The notes below the pieces were generated by a model that worked only from the letters and a program-made list of their open reading frames with translations, was not told the DNA's origin and did not search any database. DNA of 64,000 nt. It comes from Amoebophrya sp. A120. Its lineage: Eukaryota; Protista; Dinoflagellata. Positions 6,425 to 44,600 of this stretch are shown piece by piece (positions within the stretch are counted from its first letter, which is position 1; every line of letters starts with the position of its first letter). The position numbers and the translations under genes were made by a program. The stretch spans positions 1,443,984 to 1,507,983 of the forward strand of contig CAJINV010000014.1 of the NCBI GenBank assembly GCA_905178155.1. The letters run 5' to 3'.

Positions 6425-6551
6425 TAAGGGTGGCTACTTCCTCTCCCGTTCGTGCCGCTGTCGTTTTCCAGTAGCCACGGTGGAATAATCTTAATCAGGG
6501 CGAGGCATTGATTTGGCGTTGACAAAGCGCCAGCACCTTCTCACAACACAG

Positions 6552-7803: not shown

Positions 7804-8723
7804 GCTTGAGGCGGGTGTAGGAGGTATGTTAAAGGCGCGGCATGATTGAAATAGAAATACTTGTAATCGTAATGACAAAGTCCAGTGATGAAGTTAGTTG
7901 TATCGGACGGTCTGGTTTCATCAACAGTTTCATGGCAAGGATGACTTTTTGAAATACTTGCAAGACCTGTGTACAATTCCGACGTCTGTGAAGAATAAAA
8001 AGACGCTACGCGGTGCCTCACTATGTGCTTGGTTCTTATCAAAAATCTAACGAGCCTACTCATATACACATGCAAAAGCGTGGCGCTTCTGCAGCGCGGC
8101 TGGTTCAGTTCGTTGCAAGTCAAACTCGATCATGTTGATTGGTACAGATGAAGAAGTGTTCTCAGAGGATAACGGATTGAGTCGTCAGAACGTGAAGGAA
8201 GAAAATCGGTCCTTATATTCGTGATGCGAAACCACAGAATAATGTGGTAAGAAAAGGAACTAAGTATGCGTCTTTCTCTGCAAGCTAGCAGTAGCACCGA
8301 CTTGAAGTGCCGCAGGTTTGAACTTCATTCGTACAATGATGACAATCGTACAAAACAAATACGTCCACAAAAATCGTACACACAACGTCCATTCCCGGCT
8401 TCGTAGTAGGTCCCTTGTGCCTGTTCCGATATTAGCGGATATTACGCAGCAGGGACGTGCAATTCCAATTCGTATATCACTCGTGTCGTTTGGAAAGCCA
8501 ATGGAGCTCCTATCTTCTTTCGTCAATCAAAAATCCACCCAGCATCTCACGCTTGAACATTCAGAAATACATCCTCTGTTCACACCCGCAGAGAAATTTA
8601 CAGTTTCAAGAATTCATTGGAAAATAATTAACCACAGTTGTGCAACTTTTTTTTTCGAACCAATACCACATGCGACGGTTGCACATACGGTCGTATTAAT
8701 ATAGAGGAGCATCTTGCACAAAG

Positions 8724-11700
8724 ATGTCAGGACGTCGAGCGTCAGGCCGACGTAAGTTGCCGTGCGTGCTGATGTCCTCGTCCTCGAAGATGTTGCTGCG
8801 CTCCTTTGCTATTGCTTCCGGCGGGGCAAAAATCTTCACGTCGTTGAACCTCCTCGCGACTGCAGCAGAGCAACAAGACCGGAAGTTGAAACAACATCAA
8901 GCGCCACCTACTGCTTCAAGAACAGCACCAACAACTTCCGCCAAGAGCGTTGATGTCGTCGACCAGACCTCCGGGTCGTTATTTTCGCTTCTCTTCGGCA
9001 CAGCAGACCATGTTGCAGACTACGAAGATAGTTTGCTGCAAATGGAGCTGCAGAAGGACCAGACAAAGAAGAATGCGGCCGCAAGAACAACTCCGGAACA
9101 AGGGGATGAAGATCAACATCAAGATGAACGAAAGCAAAAGCTCCGTAAGCTGCAGACCATCACGCGCGCCGGCCCCGGCGCTCTGCCCGTGGAGAAGATC
9201 GAGGCCACGTACATGCAAAACCTGCTCCAGTGCCACGAGTATTCGCCAGTGTGTCCGGCGAGCTACGAGCCGTCCTGTTACATGTTCGCGTGGAACAGTA
9301 CGCAACAAATTTCCGCCGGCGTCCGGGCGGCGATCACGAAAGAAGACATCAACGAAATGCTGAAGGTCGGGGGCACGAATCTCAATTGCCGCAGGAACAT
9401 CGGGGTTCTTCCCGTAGCGCCAGGTTTGAAGGAGATGCGCAGACAACTGTACGCTTGGGCGTTGAACGGGACCTACAAGTGCCACGCGCAGTACTTGAAG
9501 TCCAACTTGAACGAGGACAATACCCCGATAAGCACGTCGGGGGGCATGTTCGAGTCGATCCGCGCGATCGGGAACGTCCCGCCGTTCACGGAGATCCCGC
9601 TGTACACAAACACCTCGGCTCATGATTTGAACGATCCAACACTGACCACCTGGAACGCGGCGGGCAGTTCGGAGCTCGACGAGGTTTCGAAGTGGTACGT
9701 GGGCGGATGTGGGACGTTGGGCAGCTGTGTCGGGGTGTACAAGAAGGTGATGCTGGTGTACGACCACACCGAGTATTTCGGGTTAAAAGACTCTTCCTGC
9801 TGGACTCGCGAACAAGCCATCCCGGTCGTCGCGGACCACAACACCCCGCACGACCTGCTGCTGAAGTGCGCCACTTCCTTGTACCACTTGCTCGCTCCGC
9901 GGTCCCTGGGTGCTTACGTGAAGTACCCGTTTGAACTACGCGACGCGGTTCTGAACGCCCAGGTCTTGTTCACCTGCGGCAACACGTATCACGACCCTGT
10001 GAACGATATTACCCGGTCGTTTCCGTCCTTGTGCCCGGAGGGGGGCGCCTGTACCGTGATGGGCGGGTCCGCCACGCACCAAACCCCGGCGGCCTTTGTC
10101 CACGTGAACGGGATTTGCGGGCACCAGCCACACGCGACGAATCTCCCGCAACTGCTGCAGTACGAGCACGGGGGGATCAGCTACGGTGCGAGTTTGGCGT
10201 CAGAAATCTGGATTCGAACGATTTTGGACATTGCCATCTCCCACATCGACCCAGAAGGGTATTACGCCGTGCAAAGGGCGGAGGCCATCGCCAGTGGGAA
10301 CAGGGTATATTAACTTGGATTCATGTAGTCGGAACACGAGGAAAAGAAGTAGAAGCTCAAGCTTGCTTATTCCCTGTATGCAAACTATTGCTCACAATGA
10401 CAATCAAAACATATGAACGCCGGCCTTATCTTGTGTATTCGTATTGTTGACGATGCCTGTGTTTATTTCAGATCCGGCGGAACAAAATCAGTAATCTTAT
10501 TTAATCTTTTCAAACAATTCTATCTCAGGTCTACCGGCGCGAATCTTGGATGGACTGTCACACGGCCGCTTCTTACTACTTCGCGACGGGTGTCTCTCTT
10601 GTTCTCTGGAACGTGCGGACCTCCGATGCGCACAACAGTAAATCCCGCATGGACTTACGAACCCAGGACCCGAATCTGTGGTGCCTCGCACTGCGGTATT
10701 TCGATATCAACTGCAAAAGTGTCTGGGTCTGGAAGAATCCGAACTTGTGATGCTGCATTTGGATTCCGAAAAAACCTGTATTGCATAAGCAGCAAAGGGA
10801 GTGCAATTTTGGCTACGCGGAGAGGGCATTTGTCATGCGGAATAGGCATCGCGAAGCCCTCAAAAAGTCTGTGATGCTAGGGCATGCATCACAGACATCA
10901 TGGGCCATGCAAAACGTGCATGACAAATCTCAGAACCTTCCAGACCCAGACATTTTTGCTTTTCATATTCGAGTTTGACAACCAGTGGACGTCTTGCCCG
11001 AGCGGCCACGCGAGTGAGTTGCTGAAGACGATCCAATATGCAATGCAAAAGCATCGTAGTAGTATAAATTGCATTACAAATTAGCCCAGCATTACAAATT
11101 GAATTTGTAATGCTGATCTGCGTTGAGAGAGAGATTTGTAATGCATAAATGCAATTACTACGAGTATGTACGATACTTTTGCAGAGCATATCCAAACGGA
11201 GGTCTCTTCGAACGCGGTGAAGGCCGTGGACTGCCATACCGTCCTGAATGTGCTGGGCGTGCGGCAATTCGGCCCGCCGGGGGACCACGGGATCGCGATG
11301 GGGGGGTCGCAGAACTTAACCCACTTGAACCCTTTGTATGTCATGAACATCACGGAAAACAACGGCACCGCAGCCCCCTGCAACCCGGAGTCCACGACGG
11401 AGAACCAGCGTTTATCAAATGCAAAAATGTCTGGGTCTGGAAGAATGCATGTTTATCATGCTTGTCTGGCATGACTCTTAAATCTGTCATGCACGTTACC
11501 CAAGAGCCCCACTTTTCTGTGATGCAGAAACGCAGTTTGTCATGCAGAAGAGGCAACACGTAGAAGCTCAGGAACATGTCATGCTGGGCCAGCAATTGTG
11601 GCCTCATCATGAGACCCCACCCTGCATCACAAGTTTCCAGACCCAGACATTTTTACATTTGATAGCGTTCCGGGACCAACAACGTGAACATCGAGTTCAC

Positions 11701-14700
11701 GATATCCTGAGTAAAAACGTACCCACCCCATAGTTGTAATGCAAATCTGCATGCTGAAAATGTTTCTCATGCGGAGCCCCATGAGAGGCATTGTATAGTC
11801 GTGCTTTGCAATTTGTCATGCTCCAATCAGCATGGTATGCTAGATCTGTGATGCTCCTGAGCTAGCTCAAACAGCACTACAATACGAGTCCAAATTTGTC
11901 ATGCAAAACAGCCAAAACTTGTGGATTTGTCTAGCCGATTCCCCATCTTGACTATGGTGTGGGTACGTTTTTACTCAGGATACACGAAACCGGTGATGCC
12001 GACCCGGCTGCCCAAACAGTCCCCGCACGGGCACTGCTACTTGTACCAGACCCGGGGGTACAGTGGCACCTTCCCGGACAAAAAATACGAGATCTGCAAG
12101 CCGGAAGACAAGCACGACGCGCGGTTCGCGATCCACGACCAGTACGGGGACGCGAACTACTATGTGAAGGGTGTCCAGTATCTGATCGGCACCGAGGGTC
12201 CGACGGCGCAGGCGAAATCAGCTTTATTAGCCGCGGAGGGCAACGTCGGGTTTTACCACCGGGTGGTGTTTGATCGCAACGCGACGGTGTACCCGGAACT
12301 GTACTTCGTCGGCTGTAGTGGTCCGAAATTACGATCTCTGTGCGGGTATTATTTGTTTTCCGGGGAATTCACCCAAGGAGCGACCATGTTCACCATGAGC
12401 AGCACTGTCCCTGGGGATCAGAAAGCAGTCGTGTACCGGCAAATTCGCGGCTCTACCTTCATCGATTCGCTTTTCGGCGAGCGTTGGACCATCGGGCCGG
12501 ACCCGAATACCGGGCTGCAAGCGAACTTCCTGGTCGATCAGAACCTCGCGAACTACGCGAACAATCTGAAGGCGTTCTACGGCGAGCAGACGACGTTTGT
12601 GAAAGTGCACAGACACACGTACGACTTGTACAATCCGACCACCGGGACGAAATTGACCGAGCAGGGGGTCTTCCTGGAAGTGGACCTTTTGATGACCGGA
12701 TCGAATTCGCATTTCGTCTACCCCGACCAGCAGATGGGGCCGTTTTCCTACAACCACGAAGTGCACGAAACGAGGAAGCAGAAGCTGGCGGACGTGTTTG
12801 GTGTGCCCGTGGCGCAAGTGTCTCCGCTGGACGGGTACAAGGGGAGGCTCGGCGCGGGAGATGGGAATAGTGCGAATGGTGGGGGAAAAACACCGGTGTC
12901 CTACTACATGACAAGTGTTGGCCTCCCGGATTCCTACCACGGCATGGTGAAGGAGCCGATGGACGAACTGACGTGCAATCAGGAGATGCGGACGAACGTT
13001 TTGTGCCCGATGCTCTGCACCATGACCAACACGTCCATCGTGAACAACCCGAACAACTGCACCTCGGTTTGCGAAAAGGAGTGCACGGGCGTCTACCCGG
13101 GGTTTGACATGAAAAGAGGTCTAAATTCCGCCGCAAGCATGACGGCGATGTTGGCGCATTTGGGGAAAATCAACTACAAGGCAAACCAGGACATTGTCAG
13201 AAACTTGCTGGGGGAAGAGGCGTACACGACGAGTGTTATCAACCACGGTAGCTTCGACTCTCCGTACTTGAAGCGGTACAGCGAGGAGCATTTTGGGTTG
13301 TTCAAGAAGATCTTCTATCCTCTGCAAAAGTATCGTACTCGTATTGCAAGTCTTGCATTACAAATCTTTTTTTTAAAGGTAAATCCGCATTACAAATTTT
13401 ATTTCTCATGCTGAGGAAATTTGTAATGCATTTATACGAGTACGATACTTTTGCAATGCATATCTTCGCGAATGAGAAAGAGGCGAGCGATCTTCTGCAT
13501 CCTTACGTGGCCAAGATGGACAAGATCGAGGACGATTTTTTGTCGGAAAAGGACCAGGAATTTTTGGAAGAGAAGTACGGAACAAAGAAAGATCATGATG
13601 CGAACAAGATGAACAAAAACTCTATCGACAAGAACATGCTAAAAGCGGTGAAGGCCAGTCGACAGTCTTACATGTTCATGAAGAGGATGAAGCAGAGGCT
13701 GTTCAATCCGGAATTTACGGAGTTGATCGAGACAAAAACCATCTGGACGAAGCCGCTGGACGAGATCGACGCGATGGATTATCCGGACGCAGGAGATGCA
13801 AATAGCCAACAGTTTTACTACGAAGAGCCATCAAGTTCATCTGTGGTTCCTCTGTCCAAAGTTTTCGGAACCAAAGTCACCTACCACGTGGACGAGAAAA
13901 ATTTAGATGACAGCGAGCAGCTCGTTCCCGCGGAAAAGAGGTCTCTCCGGAATAAATCGGTGGAACTGAAATCTAGCACGAAAACCCGGAAGCTGATGAC
14001 CAATAGCAAACGACGCCAGTTGTCGCATTTACCACTACCCTCCGCGAACAAACTCCGGTCCTACGACTGGAACGTCGACGCCTTGCACTTGATCGAGGAG
14101 CTGACCTTAACCGAGTTGACCGGCTGGACGCAGCCCGAGCACAATGCGAACACCTCGACGTTGATTTACGAGGTGAACAAAAACCGGTGGCGCTTGTCCG
14201 TCGGCGAAGCGGAATCGCTTTTCGAAGGGCAGTTAACCGCCGGGAAATTCACGTTTGAGTGCACGACTGGTTCCATGACGGATCCGTGTTTGAGTGCGAA
14301 TTTAGACCACTGGGTTGCGTGCGACGCCAGTTACATGTGCAACATGGAGCCGGAGCCGAAGTGGAAGTTACCAGCAGCGTCCGAGCAGGACATGTTCGCA
14401 AAGCAACTGGCGTATGACATGCAGCATGAGGACAACAACGCTTGCCACTTGCAAGAACCGAACAACAAGTGCACGACGTTTTACAAGCCGGAGTACCACT
14501 TCATCGAGAAAGCGCTAGTCCCCCCAAACGCATCTCCCAGTGCGAAAGAGGCCGCGAAGTGCAACAAAGACACGAACGACCAGAAGAGAAGAGACTCGCA
14601 GCTGTACCCCATCGTGACGAAGAACGAAAACGCGTGGATGTTCCAAATCGAGGACTGTGGCTTCCCGGGGGTTGACGGCTTGTACATCTACGACCCGGGG

Positions 14701-17700
14701 AAGGTTTTCTACATCGTGAAATTAGTCAACGAAACGGCCGTAAAGACTTGGGACACCCCCGCAAACGTGGATCAGACGGAATCGAGTTTACATTACTTTT
14801 CGAGGACAAACATTCGCGCGCACGAAGCCGGTAGTCACTCTGGGTATCATAGTGGGATCATCCCCAACAGCAACGAAAGAGATTCGGTGAACGGCATGAC
14901 CAGGATCTACGAGCACATCAACGGTACGGCGATGATCTACTACGATGCGGTGAAGCACCAGTGGTTGATTCTCGGGAACATGACGGGGCAAATTCAACCG
15001 TGGTCCCGGAAATTCGGGTCTTTTGAGTCGTCCAAAATTTCGACTCCCCCGTTTGACTTGCACCGGAACCGGCACGACCCCCCAACGACGCAGATCTCAT
15101 CTTCGGGAACTATTGTGACGAATCAGGACCTGAAGACGATCGGGTCCCTCGGGACCTGGACGTTCCGGCCCTCCAGCAAAACGGGCGCGGCGGGGGGGGA
15201 AGTGCTCCCCTATCACACGGACAGCGCGACGAAGAACTACGGGTTTACGCCGATGACGCACGAGCGGTTTGTGTTGAACGATTTGATCCCCGGGTACCAA
15301 TACATGGGAGAATTTCTCCAAGGTCACCCCGGCCTCCCGATTCTCTTTTCCTGCAGCTCCAAAGTGGGGTACGCGGCTTTGTGCAACAGCAACTGGCGCG
15401 CGGAGCACCGGCAAACGGACGGACTGCCGCCGCCGAAGGTGAAGATGTTCCTCGGGCCGCCCACGGTGGAGGGCGTGGACTACTGGCACCCGGCGACGCA
15501 GAGTGACACGACCTTTCCGAACATTTTCACGATTGAATTACCCGACCACGAAAAAATCTGCAAGGAGGTGGTGGACGAGATCAACAGGGAGATTGGATTA
15601 CCCAATTCCCACGCTTCCCGGGAGGATTTCAAGCACGTGGCCTTCATGTCCTGCATGTTCAACTACTTACCGGGGAAGTACGTGCGGACCGGATACCCAG
15701 AACGGGACCAGATTTTCGGGCAGGAGGACGGAACCACCCCAACGTGGCAGTTGGTCCATCCGGGTTTGAAGGTGAACGGCTTGGAACCGTGGTTGTTGCA
15801 AGTCGACCCGACTTTGGTCACGGCCGACACGGCGTATGTTCTCCGGCCGCCGAAGATGTGCAACGCGACGCACCCGAACGGGTTGACGAACAACCACGTT
15901 TGTTCGAACTGCGAAAACCAGGACGCGTTCTTTTGCCAAACGGACCACGTGAGAACGCTGTGCACCAACAGCAGCAATTGGCACGTCGCGACGGCCGCCG
16001 GTCAGCCGGGGGCGCAGCTGCCGTACGGGATGGAAGACACGAGTTCGATGACGATGGCTCAGATGTTTGCCGCGAAGCACCCTCTGATGTCACCAATGGG
16101 TGTTCCGAAATCCAAGCCGATTCTGAAAGAGGACCCGGACCCGGCGTATTACGTTTATTCCGGGATTTGGGTGGAATTCTACGGGGTGTACGTCGCGATG
16201 AACCCGGTCTCGTCCTTCGGGATGGTGGACGTGCTCATGCGGGGGAACAAGGCGATGACGGACCGGACGTGGTACAAAAATGTCCCAGCAAGCGCGATCA
16301 ACGCGGACGGGTACACGATTAACTGGAACCAGTACTGGACGAGCATCTACGGGTCCACCGCCGACAGTATGCCGGAACCCCCCGCGCCCACTTTGAGCCT
16401 GGTCGAGCAGTTCGGGGGGAATGTGTTTGTGAAGGCGACCACGGACGTGAACCCGCAGCCGACGATCATGGTGTACAACCAAGCAAACCAGTTATGGGAA
16501 TTGCGGTATTTGTTTTCCGAGACGGACTGCTTTCACCCCGTGTCTGGTGTTCTGATCGGGAGGTCGGAGGCGGTTTCCAGTGATTACCAGCTGTGTTTGA
16601 CGAACAAACACCCGAGTAAAAAATTATGCCGCTGCGTGTCCCGCATGACCAAAGCGAGCGACCCGGTGTACATCTGTTACTCCCCGCAGAAAGAGGTCGC
16701 GCCCTGCGGGTCCGGCTGGCAGGTCCCGGCACCGTGCGACACGAACGCGTTCCGGACGACGTTTGGCCATTCTTGCGAATACGCAAAACAGTCACCCCCT
16801 CGACTCGCGAAAGTGCAGGGGCCGCAGGTGACTCGCGGGACGTTCGTCGAAGCGGCCGGGGCCACGACGACCCCGCCGCCGACGACCACTGGGCTACCGC
16901 CGACCACAACCGAGAATCCGAAAGTGGTTACGACTTACACGAACAACGTTGCGGTGTCCATGCAGTTCGACTACTTGCAGAACGCGGAGGCACCCGCGGC
17001 CACGGCGCTGCGCATCATGAACGACAACGCCATGAAATCGGCTTTGGAGAAGGGGTTCGCGGCGTCTATCGGGATGAACGAGACCAGGGTGACGATCACC
17101 TCGGTTTCTGTGCCCGGGACAGCAACGGACACGACAAGTTCAGACACGAGCACTTCCGATGCTGGCACGACCGGTAGTACAACATCGAGCACGAGCAACT
17201 CCACCAGACGTGAGCTTTTCACGGTCGACATGACGATTAAATCCAGGAAGGCAGTGGAAGCGATCATTGCAAAGGAGAAAGAGCAGGCCCGTGCCGCAGC
17301 GGCGGCAAAGACACCAGCATCAAGGCACCTCCAAGCCTCAACCAAATTCGAACTGCAAATCGACTACCGGATTCTGATCACATCCACAGACCGCACAACC
17401 ACAATTGGAAAAGCGAATTGCTTGCAGTTAACGACTGAGCAGTGCAACGATTTGCTCAAAGAAGCCGTCGCCGCGGTCGACACGAACACGCTCACCACCC
17501 AGTTGATCATGGCGATCAATCTCTCCGGTTCGCAGCTAGCGAAGGACTTGTTGGTCCGGGATGTGTATCAAATGTAAAAATGTCTGGGTCTGGAAGATTG
17601 CCAGGTTTGTCATGCACATTTTGCATGACTCCTCAAGTCTGCGATGCATGCCCTAGCATCACAGATTTTTAGAGGGCTTCCTGAAGCCTATTCCGCATGA

Positions 17701-18895
17701 CAAATGCTCTTTCCGTGCTGCAAAATTTGGACTCTCTTTGCTGCTCATGCAATACAGATTTTTTTAGAATCCAAAATGAGCATGACAAGTTGGACCCTTC
17801 CAGACCCAGACATTTTTACAGTTGATAATGTGTTGTCCAAACCGACCATGACCACCTCCATGGACAGCTTCATGACACTATCAAAAGGAAAAATCCCCCC
17901 TCCCCATATCGAAAAGGCACGCCTCAGAGAATTTGCGATGCTGATTTGTGACCACAAATAGCGTCTGTCTTGCAAGAAAGCAACGGCATAGGCTTGGCTC
18001 CGTTATGCAGTCGGTTTGTAATGCTGTCGGGCGTACAGCATAGACGTTCCCCATGCTAAGTGCCTAGGCCAAAGCCTCTCTATATTGGCACGATATGGGC
18101 TTGGAGTCCTCTACTGCAAGACAAATCTGATTTGTGTACGCAAATCCAGCATCAGAAGTCTCGTTCTGCTATGGGGAGGGGGATTTTTCCTTTTGATAGA
18201 CGCAAACGGTCGACGAGATCTTCGCGGCCAAAGTCCCGGTCCGGCCGGTTTCCAAGATGCAGATCGCGTGGCGAGTGACCATCGTCATGCGGTTTCTGGA
18301 CTGCATGAGCGAACTGGAGCTGAACGCGAGTCCGCAGCTGACGCAAGCGTTGAAGTTCTCGTTTCAGACCTCCTTGGACCGGATCGCCAACGCCAATCAG
18401 TACCAGGAGGTGCAGACCCAGGTGCACTGTTTGCTCTGCTCGACCATCGGGTGCGGGTTTTTGACAAGAGAGCTGGAGGAAGGGAAGGACAGCGCGAATG
18501 ACAAAGCGGCTCTACCTTTACCGTCGCAGTCCAGCATGACAAAATCCAGAAGTCTCCAGGAGTCGCAGCAATCCCGGCACATCCACGTGGACGTGTTGCT
18601 CGTGTACCGGTCGGCCACCTCGGCTTTCGCCGCCTCTGCGGCGTTGGAGTCGACTCTGACGGAATTCGCGCAGTACCTGCACGAGGATTTGGCAGTGCAG
18701 CTTCCCGCGGGGATCTACACCGTGGAAAATGTGGAATCCGTCGGGCCGCCGCAACTCGGGGGCGGGGTGGTCGGCGAGTGGACGGTGAACTCCGCTCCGT
18801 CCGGAAAATTTGCTGGCGTGTCGGGCTCCTTCGGGTCCTTTGCTCTCGTCGGCATGATGGTGTTGTGGGTGGCGGTGCGCGAAATGCTGTTGTGA
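8724..18895 (+). CDS. Very large putative secreted/surface-anchored protein (2744 aa, 9 exons)
   Basis: Exons 8724-10304, 10529-10704, 10973-11036, 11196-11412, 11670-11702, 11988-13315, 13468-17565, 17833-17878, 18204-18895 (8235 nt, in frame). One GT-AG intron plus seven TIR elements. Cys-rich body, Thr/Ser-rich stalk, hydrophobic C-terminal tail; no family recognised. Confidence 0.8.
10705..10967. mobile_element. TIR introner, family A
   Basis: TATCAACTGCAAAAGTGTCTGGGTCTGGAAG...CTTCCAGACCCAGACATTTTTGCTTTTCATA; TSD TTCGA; restores YFEFDNQW. Confidence 0.92.
11037..11190. mobile_element. TIR introner, family B
   Basis: TATGCAATGCAAAAGCATCGTA...TACGATACTTTTGCAGAGCATA; TSD TCCAA. Confidence 0.9.
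11413..11664. mobile_element. TIR introner, family A
   Basis: 30-bp TIR TATCAAATG(C/T)AAAAATGTCTGGGTCTGGAA; TSD GCGTT; reverse-complement relative of 38464 and 56279. Confidence 0.92.
11703..11982. mobile_element. TIR introner, family J
   Basis: TATCCTGAGTAAAAACGTACCCAC...GTGGGTACGTTTTTACTCAGGATA; TSD CACGA. Confidence 0.92.
13316..13462. mobile_element. TIR introner, family B
   Basis: TATCCTCTGCAAAAGTATCGTACTCGTA...TACGAGTACGATACTTTTGCAATGCATA; TSD TCTTC; joins the 497-aa and 1389-aa ORFs; interior very similar to 3428. Confidence 0.92.
17566..17827. mobile_element. TIR introner, family A
   Basis: Family A TIRs; TSD ATGTG; reverse-complement relative of 10705-10967. Confidence 0.92.
17879..18198. 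mobile_element. TIR introner, family C
   Basis: TATCAAAAGGAAAAATCCCCCTCCCCAT...ATGGGGAGGGGGATTTTTCCTTTTGATA; flanks GACAC/GACGC. Confidence 0.9.
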
Positions 18896-20566: not shown

Positions 20567-23500
20567 ATGAATGACTACACACGGTACCGGGCTGCGGTTA
20601 CGCACCCGAACAAGACGCTGGACAAGATGATCCGCCACGAGGAGATGCAGCGCATGAAGACCCGCGTGCGGAACGCAAGCCCGGAAAAGGCGGTGACACT
20701 AGACCTCGGCCGCATCCACGTGAAGAAAATCGAGGCGTACGAGAAGTATCTCCGGCATGAGAGGCTGCAACGGCAGCAGTTCCACGAGCACCAGCAGTCC
20801 CTGCAGTCCATGAAAAGCCGGATACAAAAATCCAGTGCGGCGGTTGTCATACCCGCGCGGGCGATGTTGCTGCAACAAGGGACTAGTACGGGTTCGAAGA
20901 GTCGGAGTTCCTCGGCTCCTGGGACTGGTAACAAGAAACACAAACAAGGGAAGAAAGACCACAATAGTTTGAAAATCACAGGGGAGAAGAACAGATTAGC
21001 TTTAATCCTCGGGAATATCGTCCAAAACCTAGACAACTTATCGAAAAACGACGCGTACCAGGAGGATGAGCAAATTCGGGCGAGGATAAACGCCATCCGG
21101 GAAAAATTTACCGCGATCAAAACGCACATGCGGTACACGCAGGTGCACCAGGTCAGTAGTGAAAACGTGATCAATGACTTAAAAGTCCGCGCGGCGGTCG
21201 CAGCCGGGATCAGACGAGCGGAAAGCATTGTCGCGAAGCAGATGACGAATGCGAGTACTATGCGGGTTGCTGGCAGTGGTGAAGTAGATTTTGAACCAGC
21301 GCAGCAGGAGGCATCTCTGCAAGGAGCACCTGCATCTTCTGGTGTGCAGCAGTCTCAGTCACAACACCCACCGGGAACGCCACCGTTCCCGGCCACTCCG
21401 CCTGGAAGAGGAGCAGAAACAGCTGCTGTTTCAACATCCGGTGGCGCTGGTGGTACTCAAAGTGGAGGAGAAAATACAGCCGTCGCCGCTCAACAGGAGA
21501 ATTTGAACGCAACTAATGTGACAAATGCACCAGCAACTTTCGCGGATCAACCACCGGTCGGGCCGACATTTGCGGCGCATCAAGCTGTAGTTCCAGCAGG
21601 AGGGAGTGATCAAAAACAAGTTCTAGTTGTGCTCACCCAGCCCGAAAAGTCATCCTCTTCCTCTAGCGGGAACAAGAAAGGAAAAGCGTCAGCTTCTTCT
21701 TCAAGTATCAACCCGAAGATGGGTAGCTCAGCAGGAGCAAAAGGAACGTCATCGGGTAGTAGTTCCAAAGACAAAAAAGACGGGAAGAATAACCCTGCTT
21801 CTTCGAAGGAGAAACCTTCCGCCAAGGAAGTCTGTGTCCTCCGGCACCAAGCCGCTGTGATTCAACAACAAGCGTCGGTCATCCAGCAGCAGGCACAGCT
21901 GATTGCGCAGGCCGTGAAGAATGACCAACTGCACGAAACGGGCGGCATGATGGCGGCGGCTCTGGACGTCGCGACAAACCAGGCGCAAAGGGGGCGGATC
22001 ATGAACAATCAAGCCGCCGCAACCATGGCGGGGAAGGACTTCGGGACAGCTGCAAATAAAGCCGGAGGAGATCATCATAAGGCTGCTGGTGGGAAGAAGA
22101 AGCAAGACAAAAAAGACGGAAAGACCGGTCCGCTGGGGAAGAAGAACAAATACGAGCGTGCTGGATCATATCCACTGGAAATTTCCTGTACACAGACAGC
22201 ATACAGATGGTGTTTCTACTACATCTACTGTATGGCGAAACTTTCATCTCTCAAACCTGTTACTGTTTAGCATGACAAGTCGGACGCTTTGAATATGGGG
22301 AAAGTAAAACTTCTATGCAATGATGCATTTCGCACATCATGTACGGGAAATTTATTGCATTGCATAGAGCAAAGTCAAAATTGGCACGCGTGCCGGAGGA
22401 AGCATCTTTCTCCCTCGCAAGTCGCGCCGGGACGGAATCTGTGTTGCATGGGGAGGAAGAGGCGGAAAGAGAACCGGTGGAAGCGGAGACCAGGCCAGTC
22501 AGTGCGTCCGAAGTGGTGGAACAGGAACCAAGGTAATTCTTATGGGTAATTTCAATTTGTGATGCTGGGCATGATGCATAATGCGAAGCTCAGTCGTGCA
22601 AGAAGAAGAACCGCATGAATTCATTTCAAACGAGACTTCTTTTATCGAACTTGAACCTGTAGAAAAACTTCTATCACGACATCAGAACCCCACCCATCCC
22701 GGACAACTTCAATCTGGAAGCCTCCCCCGGCGGGTTGGAAATGACGCACGTCGGCGGCAGAGCCGGCCCGATGGCAAAAGATTTAGTCCAGAACTTAGTC
22801 GACGGCGCCATTCGAAACGATGCCGACACTCCGGAGGACGATAGGTACGGGGGAAGGGAGGTAATCGATTCTGGCGATCAGCTGGACTCGGACAGGATGC
22901 AGAAGAGCAGCCCGAGAGTATTTTAAAACTACAACTAAGTAGTTTATTTCGCTTTTTGCTCGATTTTTGAGATTTTCTATTTTGTTTTTGCATCCCTAAA
23001 TCGAAGAAAACTAAAGATCAATCTATCACCATTCGATCAGGTCGAAAACCAGAACACGCGGCACGCCCGACGGCTCGCGTCATCGCTATGGCGTTCTCAA
23101 ACGTTACATTCTCAACTGATACATGGGTTTATGCAAGAACAGCAACAGTGAAAGCGGCAATATTGCAGCTTTCGCATCACAAATTTGCCACAAATTTTCA
23201 TTTTGTTTAGCCCTTCGAAAATTTGTCATGCAAAGCACCTTGATCAAGTGGAGACCGATGGCAATTTTGCATGAAAAATCCGTGTAACAGTTGAGAATGT
23301 AACAGCTGAGAGCGCCATAATCGCAAGACACGTTTCAGCAAGTGGACCGACCTCCAATAGACCCGAGCCAGCAACACCAGTACTACGATCACCAAACCGG
23401 AGCTGTGGCCCAAGTAGAAGGACCACATCAAGCAGCAACTACACCGGACAACCTCACTTCCGCGCAATTAGAAAGTCTCGATGATGAAAACCAGCGGAAC

Positions 23501-26500
23501 AGCGGGAGACGGGAGCAGCTGGTGAGTACTAGCACGAAGAAACCTGGCAAAAACAATGACCAACAAGACGATGAGGATGACAATGCCCAGATGGAAGACG
23601 AAGAAGACAAGGTAATCGAGCAATTTCTCGTGACGCAGGGCATCCCCGCGGGGTTCGACTACCGAGCCAGTCGGATTGAGGACAGGTTTTTGCGGAAGCA
23701 GGAGCTAGAATACGACTCGCCGAAACGGCGGAGAAATGACAAAGCGACGAAGCTGCTTTTGACGGATTTCCGGGAAGACTTGGACCAGATCCTACACAGG
23801 CTCACCCGAGCCCGTGCGGCGCAGGCAGTGGCGGATTTTGTGGAGAAAGCGCACTCGGCAGAAGACGATCGCGAGTTCGGGGACATTTTCGACAGGGAGA
23901 AGGACGGAATAAAACAGACGGAGCAAGACATGGATAAGTTGTTGATTCATCAGGTTTATCAAGTGCAAAAATGTCTGGGTATGGAAGAATACAAACTTGT
24001 GATGCGCATTTCAGAACACAGAAAAATCTCTCATGCATAGGCAGCAAAAGATGCCCGCTTTCTGTCACCAAAGTCAAGGATTTGTCATGCGGATTCGGCA
24101 TTGCGAACGCTTCGCGAAACCTGTGTTGCTAGAGCTTCCATGCCAGCCCTTCTGTGTCATGCAAAAACAGCGTTACTCTTCCAGACCCAGACACATTTGC
24201 ATTTCATAAGGTTTTGAGACTCACCGAGTCTCTCGGCGAGGTAGAGAAAGAGTTTTTGCAACACACGGGAGACAGCCCGGACGGGTCGCCTGTAGGAGGA
24301 GACGGTGCTGGAACTACAACTATGTCGAGGAACAAGCAATACCAACAGGTGAAAGTCCCTTCTTTGTCATTTCCCCCTGCTGCTGCAGAGGAAGAACTGC
24401 CCCCGGAGTTCGCTTTCAACCCCTTCGTGCGGATTACCGTGAACAATGAGTATGCATTGCAAAAGTATCGTACTAGCTATAAATTGCAATACAAATTGGC
24501 TCAGCATTACAAACTGAATTTGTAATGCGCATCTGCCTTTAGAAAAAGAGTTGTGATGCATATAAGCATAGAGCAATTAGTACGAGTGCGATACTTTTGC
24601 ACAGGATACCGAGCACGATTTGACGAATCCGGGCGATTTGGAGAATTTTATCGTGGACATAGTGTGCTCCGACAGCAGTAGAACAAATCCAGACGGTTAT
24701 GCTCCTGATGCCGCGAAAAATAACAGCGTCAGCGAGGAGGTTTTGAATGAGGACGTCTGCATCCGGCGGCAGTTCCTCGAGCAAAACCCCGAAACGGGCG
24801 AGCAGACGGAGTCAGCCCCTGCGATCGTGTATAACCTGCTCAGGTGTTACAATCTCAAACGATGCAATTGAATCTGGAATTTGTGTTGCATGATGAGCAT
24901 GACAGACTCGCACAGCGTTCCACCTTTTGCAATACAAATTTCGCCAGATTCTAGTGCGGATTGGGCCTCCAGAACTTGTCATGCGCAATCCTGTGGGAGT
25001 AGGCTAGGTCATGCACTCTTGCATCACAGATTACCATATTCTATGTTAACGTTTGAGATTGTAACAGCTGAGCGCGCTATATCGTGTTTCACGGAAATCT
25101 GAAGGCCTGGTTCAAAACGGCGATCGGGAAAACGTTCGGAAACGACAGCTCGGTGGAGCAAATCGAGTTGGAGCATTTGGTGCGGTTGATTTTCCGAAAC
25201 TTCTTCTCCCCGGTCGTGTATCAAGCCGTGTGGTTCAGTAGGTTTTCCGAGCAGGGAGACGCAAACGGGGCGACTTTCGGGGGCACGACCGGTAGTCCGT
25301 CCCCGTCGGGAAGAAAAAGAGCAGCGAGTAGTGGTTCCGGCGCAATAAATGCTGTAGAACAACATCAAAACTCTGTCGGCTATAGGATGAGAATCCCGCT
25401 GTTCATTGACTCGACGAAAGAGGTTCGGGTCAGCACTCTGGACGAAGCAGGTGCTGACCAGCAAGACGGAATAAACAACGGGGAACCAGCTGGTGCAGCC
25501 CCAGGAGTACAACAACCTTCGGACAGCAGCCGCTCAGGCCAGAGCAAGACAAACAGCACGCCGAGATCCGGCCGATCTAACAGTCGATCGCCGAAGAAGA
25601 AGCGGAAGAGATCGAACGCAGGGGGGAGTAGAGGACGGAAGATCGGTATGCAAGAAAAAAACTGTGTTAGTGGAGGTGTGTCTTCGAGTGGCAGCATGAC
25701 AAACTCTCTGCATAACAGAGAAAGTTTGTCATGCACAGCAAGCTAGCACGTGAAAACTAAAAATGCATGAGCAGAGGTGGACTTCATGAGTGCTTGGCGC
25801 GACAAGTGTAACTGTTTTGCATTTTCCGCATCACAGACTTACACGGTTTTTTTCTTGCATGATCGGGTTTGATGAGGTAACCCAGGAAGAGATCATCGAG
25901 CAACTGGTGGAAATTAGCATTTCACCCAACGTCGAACAACAAGCTGGGGATATTAAGCAAGCCGTGCAAACTTGGAAAAAGCAGCACTTTTTCACCGACC
26001 GGTGTCTGGTTGTGAAACAAAACGAGGCCAGTTGGGTGATCATTACTCAACACGACACCCTCAACATTGCTCGGAACCTTTTATTGCTGCCGGAATCACC
26101 GCCGGACTCTGTTCTCGTCTTCAGTCATCGGGGACAGCAGGACTTGTCGTTCTTAAGCGGGACAGATGAGACACAACAACAAGCAGCACCCGGTGGAGCG
26201 CTTCTAGAGCAGAAAGTATGCGGAGTAAAAACATCCCCACCCCAGAGTCAAGATGCGGACTTTGCAACACAAACCCAGAAGTTTTGGGAGTCGCGCATGA
26301 CAAATTGTAGTCAGTAGTGTAGTGCAGGGTGGCAAGGAGAGCCGCAATACAGATCCAGCTGCTCATCCTGTTTACAGCAATTACAAATGCCAAAACACGA
26401 TTGGAAATGCCCCCCATAGAGATGCGCATTACAAATGTTCCCGTCGTCGCACATTTGCATGACAACTCTGGGGTGGGTACTTTTTTGGTGAGGATAGAAA

Positions 26501-37953: not shown

Positions 37954-40915
37954 ATGGGTCGTATCGAGCCTTTAAAAGCTTGGGACGAAGAGCGTGTCGG
38001 CAGTCAGATCGACCTCTCCGCCGACAGAAAAACCGCAACGAGATATGGAAGTGTCAGGTTTGAAATCGACAAACACAAAGTTGAAATGATTTGCCATGCA
38101 TAAAATGCAAGGCATGATGAACATGAAGTGCCTGTCTTGCCGGGATGGCAAGTGGGGCCGATTGTGAGCCTGTTTAGGGTTTGATATAGAGCTGCTAAAC
38201 TAGCATGACAAAAGCAGTCCTCTGCGCCCAAACAGCATGACAAATTGGATTCCGACGCTCGGAAAATTTGTCATGCCCCGCTTCACAAGTGGGCTTCCTA
38301 CTGATATCGGTCTTATGCATGACAAACTTAATTATTTCAACTTTGAGTTTGACGATTTCGATCCTCACACATCCATACGAGACAAGCGGAAACGAACCCG
38401 AGAGGGTACGGCTGTTTGTTGTATGGGAAGCAGCAGCTGGGAAATTACGCGGAAGGAAGGTACTATCAAAAGTAAAAATGTCTGGGTCTGGGAACTTGTG
38501 ATGCTGGGTCGCGTCTCATGATGAGGCTACAAATGGTGGCTCAGCATTACAAGTTTCTGAGCTCCTAGGTGTTGCCTATTCTGCATGACAAACTGCGCTT
38601 CTGCATCACAGAAAAGCGGAGCTCTTGGGTAACGTGCATGACAGATTTAAGAGTCATGCCAGACAAGCATGACAAACATGAACTCTTCCAGACCCAGACA
38701 CTTTTACAGTTGATAGGTACAACTACATCACGATTTATAAGTCGTAATTCGCGAGCAGCCCGAGCGCGACCTCGACGTGTAGTTATTTTTGCAGATACTA
38801 CGCAAGAACTCCACTGTGAAAAGACGTCGAGGTGGAACCTCTTCGAGTGCATTTATAATTTGAATTGCGAAACAAGTAAATTTACACGTGTGAAGAGGTG
38901 TGCATTGAAAAAAATCTTCCACCACATCATGTTCTTGGACCAATTAAAAGACCATATATTATAATTTGTTGCTTTACGGACCTATGCCTATGCTCCTGAT
39001 CACAGGTTTGCAGAAGTGATAATCCACCAGCAGGGCACGCGGGCAACAGAATCTGAATACCACGCCGGCGGTGTGTGCTATCAAAAGGAAAAATCCCACC
39101 TGCCCATACTCGAAAGGTATATTTTTGAAATATTTGTGATGCTGATTTGTGGTGACAAATCGTGTCTGTCTTGCAAGAAGGGAAGAACTCCGCCGGCTCC
39201 GCCGCATTATGCAGGCGGTTTGTCATGCTGTTGGGCCTACAGCGCGGACGTTTTTCATGCGAAGCGCCTAGGCCAAAACCTCTCTGCCCACGCTTGATAT
39301 GGGCCTGCAGTGCTCTCCAGCAAGACAGGCCGGATTTGTGTACACAGATCCAGCGCCAGAGATTTCGCCTTGATATGGCGAGGGGGGATTTTTCCTTCCG
39401 ATATGTGCATCGGGATAACCAAGTGCAAGCCGGCGGACTACAAACCCGAAGAGGTCGGGCGGTCGATTTTTCACGTGCCGGACTCTTGGGTGGTAGACAC
39501 GTATATGCATTGCAAATATCTGGGTCTGGAAGAATGCAAGTTTGTCATGCTTGTTTGGCATGACTCGAGAATCTGTGTTGCATAGGCACGAAAAAGCCCT
39601 CTTACCTGTCATGCAAAAACGCAGTTTGCCATGCGGAATGCGTAAGATATGGCAGCCAAAAAATTTGTCATGCGTAGCTGCGTATTCATTGCAGTGCGTC
39701 TATCATTCACTTTCAGCATTACAAGTTTCCAGACCCAGACACTTTTGCAGTTGATAACGTACGGCGACCTGTACCGCGTACCCCCGAGAAACGAGTGGCC
39801 CCCCGACACGCTGAATGTCGCGGAAAAGCAGCCGATATGCATTGCAAAAGTATCGTACTCGTAGTAATCCTAATCGCAATTGTGCATGGCACATCTCTTT
39901 CTCAAGGTAAATCAGCATGAGAAATTCCATTTGTAATGCTGAGCGAATTTGTAATGCGATTACTACTAGTACGATGCTTTTGCATTTCATAGCCGAAGAG
40001 CGCCAGCGTGGAGAAATACGATACCTACGCCCTAGTGAAGGACGGAGACACGTACTCTACTTTTGATACGGATGTTGAAGAACTACCGGAATAGTTTCAA
40101 TCTGCAGGACTCCGCAAGGAGTGAACGTGTCATGCTGAAGAAGATGTTGCACTTAGATCGATATTTCTACTTCTGATGAAGATTTATTTTGCAGATTGAT
40201 GATGTCGTCGATGTCAGCCTGCCCACGCGAGGACTTCTACACATTCCACAAAATAATAAACAAGGCTCGGACTCCTCCTCCGACCTGACAAGACATTAAA
40301 ACTCTACTGGAACGGCAAGCACATGGCCGACCTGCCAATAGAAGGGTTTGAGGTCATATCGTACGAAAAAAGTGTTTCACTGTAAGGATCTTGCAAGTTT
40401 TGCATCACAAGTTTGTTCTACATCACAGAGAAAATCTAGCGTCTTGCATGTTTAGCAAGACAAACACTTCTAAGATACAGCTTCTGCATTACAAGTTTAC
40501 AGTGAAACAGTTTTTTCTTGCGATAGGTCACGCAAGAGGTTCGACTGATCGTGGAACTTCTATGGCGTTCTCAAACGTTACATTCTCAACTGTTACATGA
40601 ATTCGCGTTGCAAGAATCGCAAAAGTGAAAGGAGGGACCTTGTGCGTCTTTCATGACATTTTTGGCACAGATTCACTTTTGGCACAGATTCTCAGCCTGT
40701 TTGGCCCTCTGAGAATTTGTCATGCGAAGCAGCTTGATGGCGTCGATGGTCAAGGCAATTTTGCATGGCAAATCATGTAACAGCTGAGAGCGTAACAGTT
40801 GAGAGCGCCATAACTTCTCGGCCGAGCAGAGGGCGCGACGGTGAACACAGAAGCAAAAGCGCCGGAAATACCACTACCACCCGAATCCAGTACGGAAGAC
40901 GAGGGCGGGAAGTGA
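37954..40915 (+). CDS. NHR (neuralized)/SPRY-like domain protein (227 aa, 9 exons)
   Basis: Exons 37954-38043, 38383-38459, 39006-39078, 39409-39503, 39762-39835, 39997-40051, 40265-40352, 40527-40560, 40818-40915 (684 nt). Spliced product IDLSADRKTATR..GGVCIGIT..DGDTLGLLL..LKLYWNGK..LIVELLGR follows the NHR/SPRY pattern. Confidence 0.8.
38044..38377. mobile_element. TIR introner, family E
   Basis: TATGGAAGTGTCAGGTTTGAAATCG...CGATTTCGATCCTCACACATCCATA; TSD CGAGA. Confidence 0.9.
38464..38715. mobile_element. Family A TIR element inserted at the donor of canonical intron 38460-39005
   Basis: Family A TIRs; TSD GGTAC straddles the exon/GT boundary. Confidence 0.9.
39079..39403. mobile_element. 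TIR introner, family C
   Basis: TATCAAAAGGAAAAATCCC...GGGATTTTTCCTTCCGATA; TSD TGTGC; restores GGVCIGIT. Confidence 0.92.
39504..39756. mobile_element. TIR introner, family A
   Basis: TATGCATTGCAAATATCTGGGTCTGGAA...TTCCAGACCCAGACACTTTTGCAGTTGATA; TSD ACGTA. Confidence 0.9.
39836..39991. mobile_element. TIR introner, family B
   Basis: TATGCATTGCAAAAGTATCGTACT...AGTACGATGCTTTTGCATTTCATA; TSD GCCGA. Confidence 0.9.
40561..40812. mobile_element. TIR introner, family D
   Basis: TATGGCGTTCTCAA...TTGAGAGCGCCATA; TSD ACTTC; restores LIVELLGR. Confidence 0.92.
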
Positions 40916-41682: not shown

Positions 41683-44600
41683 ATGCCCACTCGCGACGAG
41701 GAGATTCATTTACACCGAGAAATTCGGCAGACCGTAGCGAACTTCCAGCACCAATTCGTCGGCACCGGCCCAGCTAGTAGCAGCTCTAGCTCGATGTTTA
41801 ACATAATTTCCGGTGGCGGTGGGTCTAATTCTATTTCCGCGGCCCAGACAGGAGGTCAGGGACTTCCTGTTGACTCGCAGCAGCAGCAGCAGCAGAACTA
41901 CTACAGTTCCACGGGTAGGGTGCGAACCAGTCCGAAGAAAAATAGCAGCTCAACATCCTCGTCCTCATCTTCGTACAAGAATGCTGCAATGTTGCAGCAC
42001 CTCCTCTCGGTGGAACAGAACGAAGAAATGAAAAGGGACCAGGAAGAGGCAATTTTGTCCGAGCGGCTGCAGGACCGGCAGAAACAGAACTACTTCGAAT
42101 ACGGGGTGAAGTCCGTGCTGGAGCGGTATATGGAGCTCGGGCAGAAGAGCATGAACCTGAACAACAGCCTAGAAAATAACAATGCGGACGCCGCCGGCGG
42201 CGCGCTCCCGAGCATCAACCACGCCGAATTACTGCAGTCGTTGCAGGAAGAGGAACAGGAGCTGCGGCGGGAGATTGCGGCCGGCGAGATGGAGATGGAA
42301 GAAAGGCAGTTGAAAGACAGAATGAAATATGCAATACAAATTTCCCGTACATGTACAAGATGCATCACAAATTTCACCAATTTGGAGCGTAACGCTTGTC
42401 ATGCTAAACTAGGATCGAAGCCCAATTTTGTCATGCAGAGACTGCATTCGTACGTGAACGTGTGCGGGAAATTTACTGTGGATATGAAACTGATCGAGAT
42501 GTTCGCGGAACAAAATCGGCAGGCTGTGGAGTACGAAAAAATGAAACGCGAATGCGAGGAGATGTATCCTGTGCAAAAGTATCGTACTCGTATAGCAATA
42601 AAGCATTACTACACCTCAAGGTAAATCAGCATTACAAATTTTATTTCTCATGCTGAGGAAATTTGTAAAAGCATTTATACGAGTGCGATACTTTTGCACT
42701 GCATAAGATGGCAAAAGGTACGATAATGTCGTGATCTGTGGGGCTCCAACTTGCTGAGATCTACTTCTAGTTCTACTAAATTCAAATTCAACCACCAGGT
42801 GCACCCCGTAAAGATGTCTGTCATGCGTATAATTACAAGGCTAAGCAAGGATTGTGGAGTTGCAGGAGCAGAAGCAGTTCATCTTTTATTCACGACCACT
42901 TCCTATTTCCTGCATCTTTGCATAACAAAGCCAGAGCTCCAGACTCTTCACTATCACTTCGTATGCGCAAAAACTTGTCGAGAAGCTTTTTTCAACTCGA
43001 CTTCTTCAGATCTGTCCCTCACTCTGACCTCCGAGCAAGACGTTGTGGATAACCACCACCAGCTGCAACAGGATGAGAATTACGACTTGGCGTACCGCTA
43101 TGGATTTGTCAGGATCGAAATCGACAAAGTTGAAATGATTTGTCATGCATAAAATGGATGCCAGTTGTGACCCAGTTTCCAAGTGGCGCATGACAAATTT
43201 GGGTAGAGCCGAGACCCAGTTTGTAATGCTGTTTGGGTAAGGAAGACGCCTTTTGTCATGCTACTTTAGCAGCTCTATTTCTACCCCTCAACAGGCTCAC
43301 AATCTGCCTCCCTTGCCTACTCTGCAAGACAGGCACTTTGTGGGTTGCATTTTATGCATCACAAACTATTTCAACTTTGACGATTTCAATCCTGACGCTT
43401 CCATAACCGCGAGCAGCTTCAGCGGCAAATCGCCGAGGACGAGAAACTGCTGCAATCCCTGCAATATCAAATGCAAAAATGTCTGGGTCTGGAAACTTGT
43501 CCTTGTGATGCTGGTTGAGAAAGACGCGGACGCCTCAATTGACTGGCAAGCATGACAAGTTTTGGAGGAGGTGCTATAGTCTTGGCTTTTCTGCATGACA
43601 AAGTGAGCTTCTGCATGACAGAAAAGTACGGCTTTTGGGTAATGTGCATGACAGACTTGCGAGTGATGTCAGACAAGCATGACAAACTTCCATTCTTCCA
43701 GACCCAGACATATTTGCATTTGATATGCAAGAGGAGGCACTGCACCTGAGCACGGAGGAATCCCAACTGGAGCAGTCGATGTATGGGATTCTCAAACGTT
43801 ACATTCTCAATCTCAAGTGTTATGCGATAATTTGTCATGCAAAGTTACCATATGATTATGTATGAATGTATGCCGCCACACGATCTATCGAGGTGCTTCG
43901 CATGACAAACTCTCGAAGCGGCGCTAAACAGCATGGAAATCTGTGCCAAATTTGTGATGCGAGAGTCGCAAGGCCGCCCCTTTCACTTCTGCCATTCTTG
44001 CATGATCATAAATTCATGACGCTGTAGTTGAGAATGTAACAGTTGAGAACGCCATGCGATGTTTTCGGCGGAGCAGAAGAAAGAGGAAATGCAGGGCCTG
44101 CTGTTGAAGCGCAAAGCGCTGCTAGAAGAAAAGGAGGAACTGGAGCAGATCAGGGAAGGGTATGCAGTTATTCTCATTTTTTTTTGCTAAAGTTGAACAT
44201 GTTCGTTGAGCTTGAGATGAACTTTTGTAATGCTGAATCTTGCATTCCGGGTGATTTTTGTCACGCATAAGATCAACAAGTTCAAGATGCTAGTACATCG
44301 TAATCATCTGCAGGTATCAAAGCGACCTGCGCCACCTGCAAATCGATGTCCCGGTGCTAGACCATTATCCAGTGCAAATTGATATGTCTGGTTCTGGTTC
44401 TGGGTTGTAGTACTCACTTCTGTTACTGGTTCTCGCATCGCAACGAAGCCACTTGTACGACATGACAGCATCAGAAGTTATTTTGTCAGCCGTTTGCGGA
44501 TTTGTTATTCGTATTTGCAGCACTACAAAACATTCCAATTGGCCAATCGTATTCAGCATGCATAATACAGATGATCTTGTTGTCCTTGAAGTCCTACAAC

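Follow-up and report, generated by a model that had tools for sequence, protein, structure and literature searches.

Introners of the dinoflagellate Amoebophrya sp. A120, an element class described in 2021, are characterized in the text of that report (PMC7789003) as introns of about 240 nt with non-canonical ends, TAT inverted repeats, an A-tract after seven variable bases and direct repeats of 3-5 nt at their junctions, occurring in repeated families. How the non-canonical introns of Amoebophrya, which number in the tens of thousands, are removed has been an open question since then; the legend to Fig. 3 of the same paper gives the splice sites as variable and the border as unknown. Here we analyse a 64,000-nt stretch of the A120 genome (contig CAJINV010000014.1, positions 1,443,984 to 1,507,983; hereafter the window) whose inverted-repeat elements share every feature of the A120 introners that we tested, and find that relatives inserted in opposite orientations, two pairs of them within a single gene, leave the transcript together with one copy of their target duplication, restoring the reading frame. 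Opposite copies, a uniform 5-bp duplication, a fixed cutting register, direction-specific conservation and a phased internal motif are not reported in the parts of PMC7789003 and its supplement that were consulted, where mentions of orientation or strand concern only gene blocks.

Related elements are known from other lineages. According to a preprint on Polarella glacialis and Aureococcus (bioRxiv 10.1101/2020.10.14.339549), DNA transposons with target duplications make introns there too, several classes either way, but with GT, GC or GA donors and, where the pattern is given in full, AG acceptors that are carried by the element or recruited from the duplication, and with an orientation bias in classes 6, 8 and 10; here, by contrast, neither the G nor the AG is needed, orientation is about even and canonical ends occur at chance level. 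The transposon-derived, inverted-repeat introns of Fritillaria borealis, as summarized in a review (PMC11282704), are removed by an adapted U2 spliceosome, as we propose below for ours, and have mostly AG-AC and AG-AT ends, whereas positions +1, -2 and -1 are nearly free in ours. Euglenid nonconventional introns share junction repeats and inverted ends that pair (a predicted pairing in our case), and are described as having a pyrimidine/purine junction consensus and a circular excised RNA (PMC11282704, PMC11170887), while the junction bases here are mixed. As for the transposons themselves, one account (PMC10045372) gives IS3EU and GingerRoot the same TA..TA termini as here and Ginger2 duplications of 4-5 bp; IS3EU duplications are there usually 6 bp, against 5 bp here, where 78-79 of 331 elements match at a further, sixth base, the chance level, and removing six bases breaks the frame. 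One family of A120 introners is described as having inverted ends and a Copia/Gypsy-like frame (PMC12130899).

A scan of the window for TAT...ATA inverted ends flanked by a 5-bp duplication with at most one mismatch returned 33 elements, against none in 158 kb of shuffled sequence; a catalogue made by hand holds 41. Our element counts combine the window with 149 loci from a second public assembly that were retrieved with one end motif, a sample biased toward families 0 and 1; merged into 135 pieces (419 kb), these loci hold 298 elements of the same families, with best matches of 73-97%. The duplication is exact in 280 of the 331 elements and has one mismatch in 51. Short (most are 100-350 bases), multicopy, and equipped with inverted ends and a target duplication, the elements resemble miniature inverted-repeat transposable elements. 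No transposase was found in the window, a check limited to its two longest copies, whose longest frames are 141 and 78 aa, and an Rfam search gave no match. At 31019-32429, ends of the family 0/1 type lie 1.4 kb apart with unmatched flanking repeats, an interior that matches none of the loci and frames of at most 141 aa; we read this as a rearranged or nested copy, not an autonomous one. Run X9, which carries the same species label, contains reads with the element end 17566-17599 joined to other flanks and another interior, and the families thus seem common to a related strain; the raw-read runs X9 and X10 match only element ends of other loci, not the host genes.

A sequence-only reading of the window had proposed three pairs of reverse-complement relatives, one of them within a single gene, and had placed all host genes on the + strand. 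Alignment bears this out. The element at 10705-10967 matches the reverse complement of 17566-17827 over its full length (84.0% over 263 bases; 223 of 264 global columns), 11413-11664 matches that of 56279-56533 at 229 of 255 positions (90%), and 23957-24208 matches that of 57570-58171 at 87% in two segments (198 and 61 bases), the split arising because the longer element holds an insertion of about 350 bases; every host gene checked lies on the + strand. Once 40 bases are cut off at either end, the interiors of the first pair score 217 inverted and -51 direct (best of 100 shuffles, -89), and those of the second 255 inverted and -90 direct, shuffles reaching at most -86 in the controls for both pairs. 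Because these interiors can be aligned in the inverted arrangement only, the orientation is genuine and does not stem from the inverted ends; these scores, together with zero inconsistent edges, also rule out orientation as an artefact of palindromic elements. The paired copies are family relatives at 84-90%, not identical sequences. The insertion in 57570-58171 (57617-57976) is flanked by a 16-base direct repeat containing the internal motif described below, and related inserts lie in loci L006-L008 (80%) and L048 (71%); it is possibly a second mobile element.

For two opposite pairs, both members are absent from spliced sequence. One 9201-nt contig from run X1 extends from 8541 to 19674 through eight joints, corresponding to one GT..AG intron and seven elements, and each element skip removes the element plus five bases, with no other letters in the five pieces listed and with the unlisted small exons consistent by length. 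Joined, its exons form a single + frame of 2744 aa (the best - frame has 278 aa), which is shortened if any single intron is kept; this one transcript lacks two opposite-orientation pairs, 10705/17566 and 11037/13316. In the second host gene, a contig from run X4 supports removal of the elements at 22169, 23087 and 23957: one piece stops at 23951, the duplication edge before 23957-24208, and the unlisted letters match the predicted exons at 275 of 275 positions. The contigs are of flat depth. Transcript evidence covers window positions 8500-27000, where four runs were compared; X1 and X4 are putative RNA runs, no run being on record as RNA; X1 is taken as such because it lacks the canonical intron, covers the gene only and contains a share of the sequence words of the stretch equal to the exon share (0.77-0.78 for X1-X3, exon share 0.772), where X5 and X6 contain 0.90 and 0.89. 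These observations bear on the idea that the elements are excised from DNA, as internal eliminated sequences are in ciliates, and not spliced from RNA. Such features as inverted ends, direct repeats and a helical phase do belong to the DNA type, but X5 and X6 contain a larger share of the words than X1-X3, the X1 contig has lost a GT-AG intron along with the elements, and conservation of the element ends tracks the direction of transcription; we regard DNA excision as highly improbable.

Beyond position 27000, the evidence for introns consists of reading frame, annotated A120 protein and the orthologue from strain A25. Removing an element with one repeat opens a + frame at the printed junctions, the last large gene has one exon with 100% identity to a protein of Amoebophrya sp. 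A120, and the A25 orthologue is colinear across the junctions at 56279, 57570 and 58234. For the 298 elements of the second assembly, whose intron status is judged by reading frame, removing the element plus five bases gave confident coding read-through in 109, and removing it plus 0, 3, 4, 6 or 10 bases in 0-2; the test resolves only modulo 3, so that element plus eight gave 106. Because read-through appears only at plus five (and plus eight), these copies, too, behave as introns by frame.

The two orientations are about equally common. A strict strand caller left 189 of the 298 elements from the loci and 18 of the 33 window elements without a strand; we set the strand of 27 window elements from RNA or frame and added them to the confident elements of the loci. 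For the seven largest families, the orientations taken relative to the host then divide as 21:20, 12:10, 6:10, 3:6, 4:2, 5:0 and 2:2 (window elements included), and element pairs of at least 85% identity divide into 44 same-way and 60 opposite. If strand is borrowed from loci whose calls fully agree (50 of 51), the set grows to 216 of 331 elements and the family counts to 27:32, 17:12, 15:9, 10:8, 6:5, 5:3 and 4:2, with a 95% interval of 0.33-0.59 for the orientation share of the largest family. The claim that the same element works as an intron both ways thus stands, no depletion of one orientation being seen in the family counts, and an even orientation probably extends beyond the genes covered by RNA. 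Published methods differ on this point in the descriptions given: matches in opposite orientation were allowed in one study of introners (PMC9860276) and the same orientation was required in another (PMC12130899).

Imperfect duplications offer a way to locate the cuts, since wherever the two repeat copies differ the base in the product tells which copy it came from. At 17879, in an RNA contig, the cut must follow base 4 or base 5 of the duplication, and at 22169, also in an RNA contig, base 3, 4 or 5; among annotated proteins, the junctions at 54282 and 59662 (both in P0001) allow no cut before base 4, that at 47862 none before base 1, and those at 48499 (where a paralogue has the same residue) and 55423 exclude a cut after base 5. 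The junctions at 49625 and 59204 are uninformative on register, and 47086 matched no protein. If there is one register, a cut after base 4 is the sole fit to all seven junctions, giving an intron of the form N-UAY...AUA-NNNN that would begin with the final base of the left duplication and end with base 4 of the right copy. One base ahead of the element and four behind it would make up the 5 bases of the duplication, leaving the coding sequence as it was. Ten GT-AG introns of the host genes (seven in P0001, three in contigs) have A at +3 in nine cases and a pyrimidine at +4 in seven, so that the start of the element amounts to a host donor minus its G. Ab initio calls of canonical introns were excluded from these counts because they were contaminated by undetected elements. 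All nine predominant splice motifs tabulated for A120 begin NT, and all nine for A25, whose repeats begin TTA, begin TT (PMC7789003).

The ends are also conserved differently according to their position in the transcript. We relaxed the scan to allow one change in either terminal triplet, obtaining 314 elements, 199 of them stranded, and none in 121 kb of shuffled sequence. Among the 199, no 5' end differs in its outermost base, while 10 of the 3' ends do (p 0.002). Changes of the second base number one (5') and none (3'), and those of the third base five (5'), each from T to C, and one (3') (p 0.22). As DNA does not distinguish the two ends, an asymmetry along the transcript reflects a step at the RNA level: the U at +2 is conserved solely where it serves as an RNA 5' end, and the T-to-C changes at +4 are of a kind that GUAC donors permit. 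Adenine at -7 is changed in 1 of 199 elements, against 5 at the mirror position, and is present in 5 of 10 host introns; a branch point there is no more than a lead. The element at 59204-59577, with AAA in place of ATA at its 3' end, is still removed in the annotated protein, an instance of tolerance in the 3' triplet.

These observations lead us to a mechanism that we hold somewhat more probable than its competitors combined, namely that the elements are small non-coding DNA transposons removed in either orientation by a relaxed U2-type spliceosome of the host, which reads signals in their inverted ends. The 5' arm would act as a donor that keeps U at +2, A at +3 and a pyrimidine at +4 but not G at +1, and would probably be read by U6 and Prp8 without U1 snRNA. 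The 3' arm would supply a U-tract and the AU at -7/-6, from which an AG-free acceptor may be measured, placing the cut four bases past the arm, where one plus four bases would cancel the target duplication. Because both ends carry the same sequence, inversion merely swaps their roles; an end-to-end hairpin might help but need not be the signal. The published inventory of A120 lists 83 of 89 spliceosomal proteins, including U2AF, SF1, Prp8 and Slu7, and reports U1 snRNA and snRNP27 as not detected (PMC7789003); loss of SNRNP27K accompanies +4 U donors in yeasts, as described in PMC10581693, and Fritillaria, in the review cited above (PMC11282704), provides a precedent for spliceosomal removal of such introns.

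Several points weigh against a spliceosomal mechanism. GT/GC-AG ends in any of six registers occur in 11 of 136 elements, against 10.7 +/- 2.9 expected by chance from shuffled duplications, which leaves the acceptor without an AG; hidden GT-AG sites drawn from the duplication, whose base composition is near background, were therefore rejected as the splice sites. CTRAY, a branch consensus that may not be that of this host, appears in the 3' 60 bases of 5 of 136 sense and 10 of 136 antisense sequences. Five of the seven junctions that set the register come from annotation, not from reads, and the published NT motifs may partly reflect a preference of the aligner. Pairing between the ends could also explain the end asymmetry, since in 9 of the 11 cases of a changed last base A has become G and a U-G pair is kept. 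A predicted end-to-end hairpin is strong in both orientations (z -8.8 and -9.0) and would bury the donor. Finally, the literature yielded no close precedent for a spliceosome that leaves +1, -1 and -2 free and shows no bias of orientation. In favour of the spliceosome, A at -2 is mildly enriched, in 50 of 136 elements (p 0.006 against 0.26) and in 73 of 216 in the extended set. The pyrimidine share of the last 25 bases is unremarkable (0.52), and the junction bases are mixed (C42 A38 G36 T20 at +1 and G42 A37 C32 T25 at -1, of 136). With neither AG nor CTRAY above chance, the orientations do not seem both to carry ordinary branch and acceptor signals, one caveat being that the self-complementary T-N-A core of the internal motif yields a weak U-n-A-Y both ways.

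The absence of AG, of a branch consensus and of orientation bias is what would be expected if a protein endonuclease and an RNA ligase, outside the spliceosome, recognized the end-to-end hairpin, cut one base before the 5' arm and four after the 3' arm and joined the exons, a scheme already put forward for the nonconventional introns of euglenids; those with inverted ends are reviewed as leaving as circles without lariats (PMC11282704), and the hairpin predicted here in both orientations would suit such a reaction. The stem itself fits less well. Pairing at positions 11-13 of the inverted ends is seen in 128-133 of 136 elements, a figure partly imposed by the detection filter, but Watson-Crick pairs at positions 4 and 7 number just 83 and 54 of 136, and positions 4-8 are often unpaired. 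Over 25 stem positions G-U (193) is no commoner than A-C (194), although this comparison is weak wherever differences between the ends predate insertion and then tells less in favour of the spliceosome. The five T-to-C changes at donor +4 persist despite the C-A mismatches they create, the 5' end of the element resembles host donors, and canonical and non-canonical introns lie in the same transcripts. Selection thus appears to favour donor-like letters over pairing, and we consider such a cut-and-ligate reaction rather unlikely. The sequence-only reading had held that recognition rests on features surviving inversion, and that much agrees with our counts, in which neither orientation is depleted and neither carries AG or CTRAY above chance. 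It had left open either a structure-guided cut-and-ligate reaction or a heavily modified spliceosome: the N-U-A-Y donor and the conserved U at +2 favour the latter, and the gaps in the stem and the parity of G-U and A-C leave the former with less support. Of the features it named, the TAT/ATA ends gain support as donor letters, the stem of the terminal inverted repeats gains less, and the motifs present on both strands look like DNA-binding sites.

That motif, TTGT[ACG]ATGC with its complement, has a density of 8.4 per kb within elements as against 0.11 per kb across verified exons. Of the 331 elements, 309 contain it, 166 of them on both strands, and 22 lack it. It points inward at 34, 43-45, 54, 66 and 77 bases from the ends. 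Its best period is 10.5 bp (amplitude 0.47; none of 500 simulations as strong), with weights from 30 clusters, one of which merges 194 elements, and the spacing of same-way copies has its peak at 31-32 bases (3 of 500 simulations); element length has no clear 10.5-bp period. A 10.5-base period suggests double-stranded DNA, most simply the binding of a transposase, and the motif likely serves a transposase on DNA. Intergenic sequence at 26800-29000, 33800-37900 and 61100-62400 contains zero copies of it, the elements being concentrated in coding exons through either targeting or selection.

The density, strand distribution, inward direction, phasing and spacing of the motif would also suit a scheme in which a protein sitting on the double-stranded DNA of the element marks its ends during transcription and recruits splicing, so that indifference to direction would come from the DNA. 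Transposase binding accounts for the phasing more simply, 22 elements lack the motif, no protein has been identified and element length is without the clear period, and we find this scheme improbable. About equally doubtful is a hidden branch-and-acceptor arrangement, a variant of the relaxed spliceosome with a defined branch site, in which the self-complementary T-N-A core provides a U-n-A-Y branch 40-50 bases before the 3' end, followed by a U-tract. U-n-A-Y is a branch consensus, both forms of the motif contain it by direct reading, and in transcript orientation 92 of 136 elements have GCAUNACA as their last motif, lying a median of 42 bases from the end; the symmetry of the DNA alone gives the same layout, however, some copies have no motif near the 3' end, and pairing to a standard U2, which may differ from that of this host, would be poor. 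Taken broadly, a second, direction-blind pathway of intron removal, whether cutting and ligation outside the spliceosome or splicing recruited by a transposase-derived protein on phased DNA sites, is unlikely in our estimate but a serious contender.

Opposite relatives within one transcript are a natural experiment that confines the signal to inversion-proof features, and the imperfect duplications supply the cut register, by which a boundary that had been unrecognizable becomes N-U-A-Y, a donor minus its G. Removal by a relaxed U2-type spliceosome, as we propose, becomes directly testable, with exact predictions for lariats, reporters and strain A25. The arrangement also explains how coding exons can be flooded, as any target can be entered in either orientation with the protein unchanged. 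Were a second pathway true, a whole transposon superfamily could insert at any exon sequence, either way, with the protein intact; were its machinery non-spliceosomal, it would represent a new chemistry of nuclear mRNA splicing and a sequence-independent, scarless unit of RNA excision. In the literature consulted, mostly open access, we found nothing on the orientation, register or excision products of Amoebophrya introns, nor in print an unbiased orientation, chance-level canonical ends, a fixed register, a 0:10 asymmetry of the terminal T, a stem without a signature of RNA pairing or a phased motif. Unbiased two-way splicing without canonical ends, a fixed register and direction-specific donor letters thus appear to be new properties of a known class. 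Coordinates of the principal features are collected in Table 1.

Table 1. Host genes, introns and inverted-repeat elements of the window (orientations A and B are relative within a family)
Feature	Position	Strand	Duplication	Remarks and evidence
Host gene 1, 2744-aa protein	8724..18895	+		7 inverted-repeat introns, 1 GT-AG intron; spliced contig, frame
Canonical GT-AG intron	10305..10528	+		Fixes transcribed strand; contig
Family 0 element, orientation A	10705..10967	+	TTCGA	Putative intron 10704-10971; X1 contig skips 10700-10967
Family 2 element, orientation A	11037..11190	+	TCCAA	Skipped in X1 contig
Family 1 element, orientation A	11413..11664	+	GCGTT	Skipped in X1 contig
Family 3 element, orientation A	11703..11982	+		Opposite copy 26217-26496; skipped in X1 contig
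Family 2 element, orientation B	13316..13462	-		Second opposite pair of same transcript; skipped in X1, X4 contigs
Family 0 element, orientation B	17566..17827	-	ATGTG	Putative intron 17565-17831; X1 contig skips 17561-17827; X4 also
Family 5 element	17879..18198	+	GACAC/GACGC	Imperfect duplication; contig joint 17877 to 18203
Host gene 2, 1414 aa	20567..26710	+		7 elements and 2 GT-AG introns removed; contig, frame
Element	22169..22366	+	GATCA/GAGCA	Imperfect duplication; contig joint 22166 to 22370
Family 0 element, orientation A	23957..24208	+	AGGTT	GT-AG reading also possible; X4 piece ends 23951
Family 3 element, orientation B	26217..26496	-		Sequence comparison and frame
Family 6 element	38044..38377	+		Opposite copy 43099-43405; frame
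Family 1 element, orientation B	38464..38715	-		95% identical to 56279-56533; frame only
Family 1 element, orientation A	39504..39756	+		Frame
Family 1 element, orientation B	43465..43725	-		Frame
Element	48499..48737	+	TTGGC/TTGGT	Imperfect duplication
Host EF-hand gene (PF13499)	54201..61100	+		A120 protein P0001, A25 orthologue P0002; 8 non-canonical and 7 canonical introns
Element, starts TAC	54282..54612	+	CCATT/CCACC	
Element	55423..55600	+	CGCAC/CGCGG	
Family 1 element, orientation B	56279..56533	-		Last base decayed (ATC); frame, annotated protein and A25 orthologue
Family 0 element, orientation B	57570..58171	-		Insertion of about 350 bases; frame, annotated protein and A25 orthologue
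Element	59662..59941	+	TTGGA/TTAAA	

Other parts of the window show further features of the genes and repeats. Two paralogous cysteine-rich genes, possibly PLAC8-like, lie at 2340-3980 and 6550-7800; the first contains an element at 3428-3576 that the second, judged by eye, lacks at the corresponding position, apparently an empty site. The gene at 45753-50536 has a paralogue of about 90% identity elsewhere in A120, P0004, which extends beyond the end of P0003; inside a single P0003 intron, 47086-47588 combines a TAT...ATA element that has an inner hairpin with a separate 71-base hairpin. A cluster of direct and inverted repeats with nested hairpins at 253-641 is unrelated to the introner ends, and short non-coding direct repeats of 94-100% identity occur at 4906-4968, 5559-5621 and 6392-6424 and at 32479-32542 and 33418-33484.

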